A DNA stretch of 10,301 nt. Origin: a virus (Duplodnaviria; Heunggongvirae; Uroviricota; Caudoviricetes). Positions 1-9,060 of this stretch are shown one piece after another. The notes under the pieces were generated by a model. That model was not told the DNA's origin. It saw nothing but the letters and a program-made list of their open reading frames with translations, and ran no database searches. The translations under genes and the position numbers were made by a program. The stretch lies in IMG/VR virus record IMGVR_UViG_2531839668_000006. One strand, written 5' to 3'. Numbering within the stretch: the first letter of the stretch is position 1; the number at the start of each line of letters is the position of its first letter.

Positions 1-213
1 TTTTTTTTTACCAGAAAGTATACTCTCTGCATACTCTGGCTTAATCGATAATAAAACTTTCATCAACACCTCCCTGTAAGACAATCTGCTTAAATGCTGA
101 ATCAGTTAGTGGTAAAAAACCCCAATAATCACTATTGGTATAACCTGTAATATTCATGATTTCATCACGAATAACTCTTTTTTCCAAAGGGAAATTATAA
201 GTAAACCGTATAA

Positions 214-621
214 TTATCGGATAATTTTTTTCATATATAGAAGCTGTAACTCATCTTCATCAAAAACGCTATAAGGTTCACAGTAATTCTTAAATTCCTC
301 ATAAGTTAAGAAATCGTGAATATCTTTAATTTCCTGAACCACACACACTGAAGTTGCAACAGATCTAAACCGAGCTGGACCTTGTCCATCTGAAGTACGA
401 TAAATAAGCAAATTATCTCCAGGCTTTAGGCTGGCTACCCCATGCATTTTTGTTAAGTATACTTTTTCAATACTGTTGGTATGTGATATATCAGCGATGA
501 TACCAGCACTCTCATTGTGGAGTTTTGACTCAGGGAAAAGACGTGTATGCCATGCAGGATAAATACTTAATAGATAATTTCTCCCCTGCAATTTGACTAA
601 GGGATAATTAGCATAGCTCAT
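214..621 (-). CDS. Hypothetical protein (135 aa), second gene of AT-rich cargo cassette; fold unassigned, weak PUA-like/ASCH-like beta-barrel impression
   Basis: ATG at 621..619 preceded by AAGGAG with about 7 nt spacing (reverse complement of 628..633). Visibly AT-rich compared with the phage core. Fold suggestion rests only on loose motifs (LQGR near N-terminus, LKPGDNLL loop). Confidence 0.5.
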   Translation of the reverse strand: MSYANYPLVKLQGRNYLLSIYPAWHTRLFPESKLHNESAGIIADISHTNSIEKVYLTKMHGVASLKPGDNLLIYRTSDGQGPARFRSVATSVCVVQEIKDIHDFLTYEEFKNYCEPYSVFDEDELQLLYMKKIIR

Positions 622-624
622 TTT

Positions 625-1095
625 TTACTCCTTCCATACCAAGTTTTTAAAGTATACACCTTCTTGCCCATTAATCGTAGAAAGATTTTTCCTCGCCTTT
701 AAAACAAAACCATATTTAGTTAATAAGCGAATTAATCCTGAATGCTTATCAAATATAGTAACATATACTTCTTTTAGTTTGTTTCTCATAGCAAATTGAA
801 ACATAATTCTAATAAAACGCTCTCCAAGTTTGGTTCCATGAGCATCGATTTTAAATGTGCCAAGCTTTACTCGCTTCATCTTTGGAAACGTTGGAGTCAT
901 ATCACTCAACTCTTCATCTTCTATTTTCAAATAGAGAAAACCATCGATTTCACCTAATTCATTACGTGATACAAACGCCTTATTTTTACCTTTTGAGAGA
1001 AACCAAACATCAAATCCTTCATAATCAGCTCTTAGGCTGTTAAAAAACGGATCTTTTAAATCGATATCACTAAAAAATTTTTCCTCGATAGACAT
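625..1095 (-). CDS. GNAT-fold (acetyltransferase-like) protein, 156 aa, first gene of AT-rich cargo cassette
   Basis: ATG at 1095..1093 with an upstream AGAGGAA Shine-Dalgarno-like sequence. C-terminal half has GNAT-like topology: VKLGTFKID, an HGTKLGER loop, then EVYVTIFDKHSGLIRLLTKYGF resembling GNAT motif B. Called from motif memory only. Confidence 0.5.
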   Translation of the reverse strand: MSIEEKFFSDIDLKDPFFNSLRADYEGFDVWFLSKGKNKAFVSRNELGEIDGFLYLKIEDEELSDMTPTFPKMKRVKLGTFKIDAHGTKLGERFIRIMFQFAMRNKLKEVYVTIFDKHSGLIRLLTKYGFVLKARKNLSTINGQEGVYFKNLVWKE

Positions 1096-1143
1096 CCAGT
1101 TCCTCTTCTAATGGCAGCGAGCAAGTGACCTTATCCTTACATG

Positions 1144-1170
1144 TTAATAGATAACCACAGCTGTAGGCAA
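1144..1170 (-). promoter_or_regulatory. Candidate sigma70 promoter for the cargo cassette (-35 TTGCCT, -10 TATTAA on - strand) with an 8-bp palindrome ACAGCTGT in the spacer
   Basis: Reverse complement of 1165..1170 is TTGCCT and of 1144..1149 is TATTAA, 15 bp apart, about 45 nt upstream of the ATG at 1095. Palindrome ACAGCTGT lies at 1157..1164. Confidence 0.25.
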
Positions 1171-1271
1171 TTACATACATTAAGCTCTATCAAACAACGA
1201 GCAAACTTAAGCACCGCTACAACTCAACCTAGCTGATGCCTGTTTTGACGATTACCCTATCAGCGCGCGCT

Positions 1272-1333: not shown

Positions 1334-1357
1334 AAAAGCCCGCCAGAACTGGCGGGC
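1334..1357 (-). terminator. Rho-independent terminator on the - strand, downstream of the lipoprotein gene
   Basis: GC-rich inverted repeat GCCCGCCAG (1338..1346) / CTGGCGGGC (1349..1357); the - strand transcript then reads UUUU (plus-strand AAAA at 1334..1337). Confidence 0.5.
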
Positions 1358-1461
1358 CTTAACACAAAAGATCCTCAAACGATCATGCGATCTCATGCAG
1401 CATAGACATGCGCGTTTATGCAGAATGTGCAAAATCGTAACATACTCAGCAAGCGTGAAAC

Positions 1462-2139
1462 CTAGAACGTGACAGCCTTGTCAAAGCCAGAAATAATTGT
1501 ATAAGAAATAGACGAGTTATCAGCCTTGTTCACTTTGAACTTGGCACCTTTGTAAGCGATAACGTCACTTCCCTTAGAATCTACAGAAAAATCTGTTGTA
1601 AATGCTGCACGAGCCATATCGTTTGCAAATTCACGATAGGTGAACTTCATTACACCGCCTGCATTTCCATTGTATTCGATAGTCTTAACCAATGAGTTAC
1701 TAACTCGACACAGCCCATCAGGAACACGTTTGATAGAAATTTCTGATGCAGTATAAGAAGTACCATTTGGCGGTGATATCTCATTTTTTGCAGCATCGTA
1801 ACTAACATAATCAACATAGTTACCGATTTGCCCATAGAGATTTTTTAACGCAACAGCTTGAGGGTTATGATAATTGCGGTAAATTCCATTCCCCTCACTG
1901 CAATATGTACCAGCAGCGATAGAAGACAATGCACCATTAGCCGCACCAAGTTCTAGTACGTCCGTTTTAAATCCAGTAGCAGATGTGATAATGGGATCGC
2001 CCATGTAGGCGGTAGCACTTTGCCCAATAGCAGGCTTCACCACTTCAATAGCAGTGATATTTCGGTTAGAAGCATGTGGCACGCAACCAGTTAGGATTAC
2101 AGCAAGAGATATTGGTAACGCTACATTATTAATTTTCAT
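1462..2139 (-). CDS. Predicted lipoprotein, 225 aa, unknown function (cargo between SOS operon and cos-like site)
   Basis: Internal ATG at 2139..2137 gives MKINNVALPISLAVILTGC, a typical lipoprotein signal peptide with lipobox LTGC. Mature part is Ser/Thr/Asn/Gly-rich. The longer ORF from 2193 would bury the signal peptide. Confidence 0.7.
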   Translation of the reverse strand: MKINNVALPISLAVILTGCVPHASNRNITAIEVVKPAIGQSATAYMGDPIITSATGFKTDVLELGAANGALSSIAAGTYCSEGNGIYRNYHNPQAVALKNLYGQIGNYVDYVSYDAAKNEISPPNGTSYTASEISIKRVPDGLCRVSNSLVKTIEYNGNAGGVMKFTYREFANDMARAAFTTDFSVDSKGSDVIAYKGAKFKVNKADNSSISYTIISGFDKAVTF

Positions 2140-2162
2140 TTTTAGCCTATTATTCTTTTCTT

Positions 2163-2197
2163 GACAAAAAACAAGGCGATATCTGATTGACATCGCC
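2163..2197 (-). terminator. Candidate Rho-independent terminator of the SOS operon (- strand)
   Basis: Stem GGCGAT (2175..2180) / ATCGCC (2192..2197), extendable by a wobble pair; the - strand RNA continues UUGUUUUUUGU (plus-strand A-run 2165..2173). Stem is short, loop about 11 nt. Confidence 0.4.
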
Positions 2198-2252
2198 TCT
2201 CACTCATATGTAACCCTTTTTGATTAGTAAAAACAAGCGTCTATTGACAAAA

Positions 2253-2486
2253 TCAATGCAGCCAGCTGTCGTCTTCCCACACCTTCTGCATAATTTTCAT
2301 CACTTGTTTTCTTTCTTCGTCCAGTTGCAGTCCGGTCAGTTCCACACCGTTAGAGCTACCTTTACGGATACGGATTACCGTTTTGGGATACAGGGGGCGC
2401 AGATTGCGGTAAAGCTCGGATTCAAGGGCGTCCAGGGTAGACTGGCTAATCTTCTGCTCTTTATCGATCATTATTTCAATGCGCAT
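2253..2486 (-). CDS. dinI: DinI-family protein (77 aa)
   Basis: From the internal ATG at 2486..2484 the product MRIEIMIDK...LDALESEL...ERKQVMKIMQKVWEDDSWLH aligns along its length with E. coli DinI as recalled (MRIEVTIAK...IDALAGEL...QETWESADDW). GAGGTG lies 6 nt upstream of the ATG. Confidence 0.85.
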   Translation of the reverse strand: MRIEIMIDKEQKISQSTLDALESELYRNLRPLYPKTVIRIRKGSSNGVELTGLQLDEERKQVMKIMQKVWEDDSWLH

Positions 2487-2496
2487 AAAAGTCACC

Positions 2497-2685
2497 TCAG
2501 TTGATGACATCCATTGAGCGGTTGTATTCGTGGCTTCTGATTTTTGCCATGAGTTCATCAGTCAATTCAGAAACCCACTGCAGAGCCAGCCCCTTCTCTT
2601 CATCACTACACTCACTAGCCGCTACAAGCTTAAGAAAAAAATCAATGCGCTGGAGCTTCAAAGACTCCAAAAAATAGTCCTGCAT
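2497..2685 (-). CDS. Small protein (62 aa), first gene of the LexA-controlled operon; positional analogue of the 186 Tum antirepressor
   Basis: ATG at 2685..2683 with a strong AGGAGG about 6 nt upstream (reverse complement of 2692..2697). Sits directly downstream of a LexA-box promoter and 10 nt upstream of the DinI-like gene. No family recognised from the sequence. Confidence 0.55.
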   Translation of the reverse strand: MQDYFLESLKLQRIDFFLKLVAASECSDEEKGLALQWVSELTDELMAKIRSHEYNRSMDVIN

Positions 2686-8868: not shown

Positions 8869-9060
8869 ATGCTTGGTAAGGTATTTTTTGTGGTTTTGTC
8901 ATGTTCTTTGTTATTAAACCCACTAACTACCTATGCTAGAAATTATCCCTGCTCAGGGAAAAAGGGAGGTGTTTCTCACTGTACCTCAGATGGCAAATTC
9001 GTTTGCAATGATGGAACTATTAGTAAATCCAAAAAAATCTGTACTAAAAACTCACGATAA
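8869..9060 (+). CDS. Small secreted Cys-rich protein (63 aa) between cI and int
   Basis: Strong GGGAGG with 5 nt spacing before the ATG at 8869. N-terminal hydrophobic signal-like segment ([22 protein letters not shown]), then a Lys/Gly/Ser-rich region with four cysteines. AT-rich. Confidence 0.55.

Follow-up and report, generated by a model that had tools for sequence, protein, structure and literature searches.

A predicted lipoprotein gene appended to the SOS-controlled tum operon of 186-like prophages, a candidate phage-exclusion factor

What would a lipoprotein do for a P2-like prophage that codes for it between an SOS-responsive operon and the cohesive-end site? This question is raised by a gene at positions 1462-2139 (minus strand) of a 10,301-nucleotide stretch of viral DNA (IMG/VR record IMGVR_UViG_2531839668_000006), the whole of which we term the window. 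The window is the early, regulatory end of a 186/Fels-2-like prophage of the P2 family (Peduoviridae), with its early operon on the minus strand. Our analysis points to a prophage-encoded envelope lipoprotein on an uncharacterised fold, carried as a moron and joined, unusually, to the SOS/tum operon. The gene probably changes the cell envelope at prophage induction, possibly in the service of phage exclusion.

The lipoprotein and its accessory module

The coding sequence (225 codons plus a stop) is supported by its translation, the alignment of its homologues, a match to the family phrog_1353 (3e-105) and the ratio of nonsynonymous to synonymous substitution rates (dN/dS 0.04-0.08). The protein begins with MKINNVALPISLAVILTGC, followed by VPH. 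Its signal peptide (residues 1-18) ends in the lipobox L16-T17-G18-C19 (LTGC, encoded at 2094-2083), such that MKINNVALPISLAVILTG followed by C fits the pattern [LVI][ASTVI][GAS]C closing an N-terminal signal peptide. An alignment of 23 sequences shows no variation at G18 and C19 and hardly any at L16, with Cys80 and Cys144 likewise invariant among the aligned homologues. A lipobox also lies within the first 40 residues of 233 of the 256 full-length family members. The clear lipobox signal peptide on which the initial annotation had relied is thus well supported by both the invariant residues and the family at large. Judged by these sequence features, the protein is an exported substrate of Lgt and LspA, lipidated at Cys19. 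The +2 residue is Val in the window protein and mostly Ala, Val, Ser or Thr across the 233 members, never Asp; since Asp at this position is the Lol-avoidance signal of Enterobacteriaceae, the enterobacterial Lol rule predicts sorting to the outer membrane. If so, the site of action must be the periplasm or the outer membrane. A virion or structural role was rejected on the ground that the protein is, by its sequence, exported and lipidated.

The start codon is placed at 2139. A mechanically called open reading frame (ORF) of 243 residues, starting from an ATG at 2193, was discarded because that ATG is not conserved and lies inside a hairpin upstream of the gene (see below), because each of the 22 aligned homologues begins with the MK... 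residues, and because RefSeq calls the 678-nt form in E. coli HS. An AlphaFold2 model (mean predicted local distance difference test score, pLDDT, 80.7; core >90) shows residues 1-27 as disordered and 17 strands in an all-beta arrangement. Thus modelled, the lipidated end is followed by a flexible tether of about 10 residues, up to approximately residue 27, and then by an all-beta body in two parts: a conserved C-terminal domain and a variable N-terminal half. The C-terminal ~80 residues retain a mean pairwise identity of 42% and the motif SFQQTLIYNGK..YREFS..ARPAF..YDLSES..IGYKGA..EV..ATN..I.YKV..NF; the identity in the N-terminal half is 20%.

Pairwise dN/dS among variants of 79-100% identity is 0.04-0.08, with dS reaching values above 1; the gene is therefore under strong purifying selection and is no chance ORF. 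This bears directly on the least attractive explanation of the locus, namely a hitch-hiking or decaying ORF with a fortuitous lipobox and no function. Such an ORF would fit the label of hypothetical protein that the gene bears wherever it is annotated, but it would not be expected to combine so low a dN/dS at dS >1 with an invariant lipobox Cys and two further invariant Cys, a domain found in more than 2400 clusters at 50% identity and a confident fold prediction. Contradicted by the data on both selection and conservation, it is hardly credible, and the pattern of substitution marks the coding sequence as a functional accessory gene. The 90%-identity cluster holding the window lipoprotein (1023 members) has as its representative an unrelated 308-aa branched-chain amino-acid aminotransferase, which is a clustering artefact.

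The gene occupies an 843-nt accessory, moron-like module (1412-2254, minus strand), whose boundaries were defined against Escherichia phage vB_EcoM-813R9, a relative without the module. This phage has just 83 nt in place of 1412-2254; it possesses the tum gene and the cos region and is 96-98% identical to the window over the flanks (1263-1411 and 2255-2998). The GC content of the module is 39.7%; gene A has 53%, the cos region 55% and the cargo at 1-1262 34%. The module thus displays both hallmarks of a Hendrix-type moron, namely presence or absence between conserved flanks and deviant composition. Among 5426 complete E. coli genomes, 1281 match part of the segment 1263-2700 and at least 50 of these carry the lipoprotein module. 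The gene accordingly appears to be non-essential cargo that most close relatives lack, as had been proposed at the outset.

In all IMG/VR P2-like loci that carry a variant of the gene (100, 96, 88 or 79% identity) and extend far enough, the order is A, orf62, DinI/Tum, lipoprotein and cos. This constant order argues that in one sub-lineage the gene has long resided just within the right cos end. In these loci cos lies ~175 nt past the lipoprotein stop codon and is followed by cargo of variable length and then the portal gene Q, which ends about 0.2-2.5 kb from cos. The hypervariable slot is thus on the other side of cos and not on the side of the lipoprotein gene.

The conserved cos region itself (1263-1411) is common to all P2-like loci and contains the 19-nt cohesive-end sequence at 1270-1288, which reads GGCGTGGCGGGGATACGAG on the minus strand. 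Its leading 13 bases are identical (13/13) to the annotated 19-nt cos of phage 186, and similarity between relatives stops a few bases past it. The 149-nt stretch is conserved in all relatives, contains a strong terminator hairpin and repeated motifs of the CATGA/ATGCAT type, and presumably takes in the portion of cos that terminase recognises. With this site on one side and the LexA box (2729-2744) and orf62-tum on the other, the proposed location between an SOS operon and a cos-like site holds. The same is true of its equivalence to the position of tin and old: the cos-proximal region from gpA to gpQ, within which the gene falls, is the P2 hotspot that houses old and tin and is enriched in anti-phage genes, as defined by Rousset et al. 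2022 (PMC9122126).

Hairpins and the link to the SOS operon

Past the 3' end of gene A, the gene order is a LexA box, a 62-codon ORF and a DinI-family gene, which together constitute the tum antirepressor operon of 186-like phages. The LexA (SOS) box, CTGTTTATATTTACAG (2729-2744), sits 5' of orf62-tum, where the promoter region is AT-rich (TTTACA at 2769-2764), and is the single perfect match to CTGT-N8-ACAG within the window. The first gene of the operon, orf62 (2497-2685, minus strand; orthologue of STM2728), matches phrog_698 (1e-37) and has an annotated counterpart in both Fels-2 and E. coli HS. The second (2253-2486, minus strand; orthologue of STM2727) codes for the 77-aa form of the tum/DinI-family antirepressor, with matches to Pfam DinI (1.2e-22) and phrog_189; the 234-nt coding sequence is annotated in both Fels-2 and HS, and a ribosome-binding site (GAGGTGA) precedes its ATG at 2486. 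The DuoHS prophage of E. coli HS is >99% identical to the window, and its tum gene is under LexA control and needed for induction (PMC12055606).

Stable hairpins flank the lipoprotein gene on both sides, as the initial annotation had noted. The upstream one (2166-2199, minus strand) is terminator-like, with 11 pairs and a U6 tract, and lies between tum and the lipoprotein gene within the inserted module; the hairpin 2199-2173 plus U6 has a free energy of -16.6 kcal/mol (z -4.1). It is kept in the variants of 88-100% identity with one compensatory change from C-G to U-A and U-G intermediates, and is absent from the 79% variants and from relatives without the lipoprotein gene. It is a probable attenuator. 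The downstream one (1336-1358, minus strand) is a GC-rich hairpin with a UUUUG tail that terminates rightward transcription (1358-1336 plus UUUUG, -23.6 kcal/mol, z -5.3). Belonging to the conserved backbone of the cos region, it is found in relatives with and without the lipoprotein gene.

It had also been suggested from these hairpins that the gene may be expressed independently. This is not supported: the downstream hairpin is part of the cos backbone, no usable promoter was found, and the published array data indicate operon-wide induction. The gap between tum and the lipoprotein gene is 113 nt and the spacing from hairpin to ATG only 33 nt; between the hairpin and the ATG we found no usable promoter for the gene. 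The single promoter-like site in the 113-nt gap (TTGTCA-18-AAAAAT) was rejected as an independent promoter, since its -10 element runs into the start codon; in the scanned region such sites are about as numerous as chance would give.

The window gene has an orthologue in Fels-2, STM2726, with 99.1% identity. A microarray study of Salmonella TA100 (Fels-2+) found that the mutagen MX induced the predicted operon STM2726-STM2727-STM2728, with all three genes changing in the same direction at p<0.05, by 2.6- to 14.8-fold (PMC2225428). It is the only Fels-2 operon among the 54 listed, and STM2727 (tum) is placed in the LexA-regulon table with a 14.8-fold increase (PMC2225428). The paper states a range for the three genes only; we infer that the 2.6-fold value belongs to STM2726 (PMC2225428).

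The P2-like variants of 79% identity depart from this arrangement. In two of them (L144, 5927-5955, and L146), a spacer of ~150 nt stands in place of the hairpin, with a TTGATG-17-TATGAT site (at the level of chance) and a better Shine-Dalgarno sequence (AGGGA). The lipoprotein gene may thus be independently transcribed in this sub-lineage. Together with stand-alone homologues on phage-plasmids, which are oriented divergently from their neighbours, these variants indicate that the mode of expression differs across the family.

The phrog_1353 family and the role of its members

The window protein is a member of phrog_1353, a PHROGs family without annotation: residues 1-223 align with profile positions 1-230 of 230 (E 3.1e-105). 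In a profile search of 1.84 billion representatives, we recovered 2430 clusters at 50% identity with E<=1e-3, and 1245 with E<=1e-10, mostly 210-240 aa in length; a scan of genome contigs with the alignment of close homologues gave one locus. All named members are termed either hypothetical protein or lipoprotein. Longer relatives are mis-called starts that contain the lipobox, or signal peptidase I variants, and a Pfam search of nine of them revealed no informative domain fusions. Our searches likewise yielded no relative of characterised function. Pfam gave no family for the window protein at E<=0.1 and none of relevance among 56 diverse relatives; NCBIfam and PADLOC-DB v2 (E<=0.1) gave no relevant match to it; PHROGs returned phrog_1353 alone, plus a marginal match to an unannotated family; PDB sequence searches with two profiles found nothing, and Foldseek searches of the model against BFVD and PDB found nothing at E<=0.001. 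Across Pfam, NCBIfam, PDB and Foldseek, the protein thus matches no structural or housekeeping lipoprotein family, homology to which would have spoken against the initial annotation. A literature search under STM2726, its accession and the phrog_1353 family retrieved nothing on function, and the word lipoprotein does not occur in the P2-hotspot papers. What is new for phrog_1353, as suggested by the alignments and contexts, is that its members are predicted lipoproteins, that their C-terminal domain is conserved, and that they recur as morons at particular positions in several types of phage.

The hosts of family members span Enterobacterales, Acinetobacter, Halomonas, Rheinheimera, Geobacter, Desulfuromusa, Gallionella and a planctomycete, and their genomic contexts are comparably varied. 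First, the gene lies in the tail module, on the strand of the tail genes, in phages that include Acinetobacter Vieuvirus phages, Moraxella phage Mcat28 and a K. aerogenes siphovirus prophage; in most of these siphovirus-type loci it is directly 5' of the tape-measure gene. Counting the next ORF of at least 600 aa on the same strand with a start within 750 nt, we examined the 27 distinct viral-contig variants that extend 3 kb or more downstream; 22 of them have such an ORF (848-1749 aa) starting within ~40-730 nt. Pfam was run on seven of these 22 large ORFs: four match TMP_3 (one of them with an SLT domain as well) and a fifth an SLT domain only. The family gene often overlaps (ATGA) the next small membrane or secreted ORF (L012, 5644-5907; L027, L072, L083, L088, L090 and L101), which in Acinetobacter-type siphovirus prophages codes for 87-88 aa with two predicted transmembrane segments and in other phages for a signal-peptide protein of 106-166 aa. 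The family gene and these small envelope-directed ORFs form a small moron cluster just before the tape-measure gene.

Second, SSU5-like IncFIB phage-plasmids carry homologues of ~37% identity. In two such phage-plasmids of Shigella and E. coli (L165, 4956-5633, and L166, 4926-5603), these are stand-alone genes in opposite orientation to the flanking genes. One flank offers a hypothetical gene and then DnaB helicase and primase genes, and the other a small hypothetical gene, whose place is taken in L166 by an IS3 transposase, and then an AAA ATPase gene; in L165 a DUF1778/GNAT toxin-antitoxin pair lies ~1.4 kb from the homologue. Third, homologues of 54-57% identity are found at the edges of islands, with serine recombinases/integrases and AbiC-like, OLD-type TOPRIM nuclease, HNH and AAA_13 genes as neighbours. 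Taken together, these contexts characterise phrog_1353 as recurrent cargo of temperate elements, present in at least four unrelated types of temperate phage.

The tail-module loci are the natural point to weigh two further explanations. The protein could be a protective 'immunity' lipoprotein against envelope-targeting enzymes or toxins, be it a periplasmic inhibitor of lysozymes or lytic transglycosylases (MliC/PliC/Ivy-like, or a counterpart of T4 Spackle directed at the tail lysozymes of incoming phages) or an orphan immunity protein to a type VI secretion system effector or bacteriocin. Its periplasm-facing, compact beta body with a conserved Cys pair would suit such a function, as would its placement before tape-measure genes in siphoviruses, with an SLT transglycosylase domain in two of the seven downstream ORFs checked. 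Orphan immunity genes are, moreover, common cargo of mobile elements. We nevertheless hold this to be improbable. Alternatively, the protein could aid the phage's own lytic cycle, as an SOS-timed or late outer-membrane factor that readies the envelope for release through outer-membrane weakening, vesiculation or lysis timing, or without which the burst would be inefficient in some hosts. Co-induction with the antirepressor at the start of induction, the same-strand location within the late tail operon of siphoviruses and the stable retention in one slot over 79-100% divergence are all consistent with this. Yet the gene is dispensable and absent from most close relatives, the phages already possess a complete holin-endolysin-LysB/LysC spanin cassette, the protein is much larger than o-spanins and unpaired with an i-spanin, and the island and phage-plasmid copies lie outside any lysis or late context; the explanation is therefore similarly improbable. 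An identity as an o-spanin (Rz1/LysC) was separately rejected: the protein has 225 aa and its gene stands alone at cos, with the LysB/LysC pair in the lysis cassette ~9-10 kb away in Fels-2 and DuoHS.

The breadth of hosts is pertinent to another possibility, that of a lysogenic-conversion factor for host fitness, i.e., a surface lipoprotein made in normal growth for serum or complement resistance, adhesion or membrane robustness, after the manner of lambda Bor, Iss and TraT. The protein is of the outer-membrane type and carried as a moron, it is widespread in prophages of clinical Klebsiella, Salmonella and E. coli, and the phage-plasmid copies and 79% variants, as apparent stand-alone units, could act in the carrier state. 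However, the lack of a Pfam match at E<=0.1 places it in no modelled lipoprotein family, and this includes Lambda_Bor and TraT, which we take to be the Pfam models for the Bor/Iss and TraT families. Further, the family extends to environmental Geobacter, Halomonas and Gallionella, for which serum resistance is meaningless, and in this phage the wiring to the SOS operon would mean that the protein is made when the cell is near lysis. Hosts as unlike as Klebsiella and Geobacter would in general argue against a virulence role specific to animal hosts. We therefore regard a host-fitness role as unlikely.

A clue to the target comes from the tail fibres. Fels-2 (Salmonella), 4LV2017 (Klebsiella) and DuoHS (E. 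coli) code for lipoproteins of 99-100% identity, whereas similarity among the gpH tail fibres of these phages is confined to the N-terminal 158-400 residues and their tips are unrelated. A mask of the carrier phage's own receptor, of the Llp/Cor type, was considered and set aside as unlikely because the near-identical lipoprotein is borne by phages with unrelated fibre tips. There is also no linkage or co-variation with the phage's own receptor-binding protein, the gene adjoining cos and not the fibre genes, and searches of PHROGs, Pfam and NCBIfam did not place the protein in the Llp or Cor families. The target, to judge from this comparison, should be a conserved component of the enterobacterial envelope.

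Our best guess, tentatively offered and held at less than even confidence, is a role in exclusion or in the prevention of readsorption. Having no convincing promoter of its own, the gene would be expressed mainly by read-through from the LexA-repressed orf62-tum promoter, a route in keeping with the published array, and the hairpin 2199-2173 would damp this read-through. The protein would therefore appear at prophage induction and be present at a low level at most in the quiet lysogen. From the outer membrane or periplasm, it would bind an Enterobacteriaceae-wide envelope component, not the variable receptor of its own phage, and the induced cell and its debris would become refractory to phage adsorption or DNA entry. 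In function it would then resemble T5 Llp, Cor or the 'anti-Kronos' exclusion factors, a recently coined name for an idea cited in PMC13622650, though on an unrelated protein. This role is suggested by the SOS timing, by the identity of the lipoprotein across phages with unrelated fibre tips and by the place of the gene in the P2 defence hotspot (PMC9122126). The recurrence of the family as cargo of unrelated temperate elements, with AbiC, OLD-type, AAA_13 and HNH genes as island-edge neighbours, points in the same direction. A bolder version, which we rate as distinctly unlikely, would make phrog_1353 a new exclusion class unrelated in fold to those known, in which the C-terminal domain docks on a universal envelope component and the variable N-terminal part blocks entry, timed in Fels-2/DuoHS-like phages to the SOS response via tum. 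Blocking would then be independent of the carrier's own receptor, and the induced cell and its debris would stop capturing phage particles, an 'anti-Kronos' function under SOS timing.

Several points weigh against an exclusion role. The protein has no similarity in sequence or fold to known exclusion proteins in Pfam, PHROGs, NCBIfam, PDB or BFVD, and PADLOC gives no match to it; the role proposed for phrog_1353 is deduced from context, and a neighbourhood of defence genes is circumstantial. The coupling to SOS may be weak given the hairpin between tum and the gene, and the array paper supplies the range of 2.6- to 14.8-fold for three genes with no value specific to STM2726. Both the copies on phage-plasmids and the variants of 79% identity resemble independent transcription units, such that the timing of expression may not be a trait of the family, and one homologue, in Kluyvera, lies in an ordinary chromosomal neighbourhood. 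Finally, strong purifying selection with no diversification would be unusual for a receptor mask engaged in an arms race.

The question matters because envelope-acting prophage genes decide which other phages enter a lysogen, with relevance to phage therapy against Klebsiella, Salmonella and E. coli; the exact protein is found on more than 1000 contigs. A function for so large a family (>2400 clusters at 50% identity and no Pfam model) would annotate thousands of 'hypothetical' phage genes. If the proposed link is true, the SOS/tum switch would, unusually, control an outer-membrane protein and so set envelope remodelling to coincide with prophage induction. DuoHS in E. coli HS, which codes for the identical protein, offers a ready genetic system, with published tum and lexA(Ind-) mutants and assays of lysogen-forming units.

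Neighbouring cargo and comparison with known systems

The hypervariable cargo between cos and the portal gene (1-1262, minus strand) lies outside the lipoprotein module and matches PADLOC PDC-M11A (1e-58 and 1e-48) and phrog_6345. It contains a split candidate defence gene: two in-frame ORFs on the minus strand (214-621 and 625-1095; 156 and 135 aa), one stop codon and one codon apart, together match the single-protein PADLOC candidate PDC-M11A and phrog_6345, with a GNAT-like N-terminal part. A PDC-M11A-like gene is split likewise in another viral contig (L118). The corresponding slot from cos to Q holds a hypothetical protein and a gene annotated as 'RNA-directed DNA polymerase', a candidate retron, in Klebsiella phage 4LV2017 (L168, 10905-12888), a 565-aa hypothetical protein in Fels-2 (L001, 2235-3932) and a 463-aa hypothetical protein in DuoHS of E. 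coli HS (L020, 2523-3914). These differing cargos illustrate the turnover of the hotspot next to a stable lipoprotein gene.

Elsewhere in the window, Pfam identified an integrase, a 186-type CI repressor, CII (CP76), DUF5347, DUF2732, a DksA/TraR zinc finger and the replication protein GPA; Rfam and tRNA scans of the window returned no matches. Between the CI repressor and integrase genes, a 63-aa ORF (8869-9060, plus strand) codes for a cleavable-looking signal peptide and six cysteines and has no Pfam match; the annotation of E. coli HS includes an equally long ORF at the equivalent place. This may be another small moron with an exported product.

Among the closest known systems are T5 Llp and the Cor proteins of phi80, N15 and HK022, which block FhuA. 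Like the window protein they are phage-encoded, lipobox-bearing and presumably located in the outer membrane. Llp is made during lytic development, and the benefit proposed for Llp and Cor, exclusion of superinfecting phages and the sparing of progeny from debris, is the one that we propose here. In contrast, Llp and Cor have ~60-80 aa and belong to other sequence families, against 225 aa and phrog_1353 for the window protein; further, the receptor that they mask is the one used by their own phage, and their genes are linked to that for receptor binding, whereas the window gene adjoins cos, far from the tail-fibre gene.

With old and tin of P2, the window gene has in common its neighbourhood, from the replication gene to cos, its non-essential nature and its variability among relatives. 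Both of these act inside the cell, Old as a cytoplasmic ATPase/TOPRIM nuclease and Tin on the replication of T-even phages. The window protein is unrelated to both, is predicted to be exported and lipidated, and has no PADLOC match. Lambda Bor/Iss and plasmid TraT, the latter of similar size, resemble it as outer-membrane lipoproteins of mobile elements carried as morons. The window protein differs from them in lacking a Pfam match (E<=0.1) and any match in PDB by sequence or fold, and its gene is wired to the SOS operon and not to a lysogenic promoter of its own.

The operon itself is best compared with the tum operon of phage 186, in which p95 drives the LexA-controlled antirepressor: the window has the same LexA box, small ORF and DinI-like Tum at the right end before cos. 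In most relatives this operon ends at the terminator of the cos region, whereas here an 843-nt module, comprising a hairpin and the lipoprotein gene, has been appended to it.

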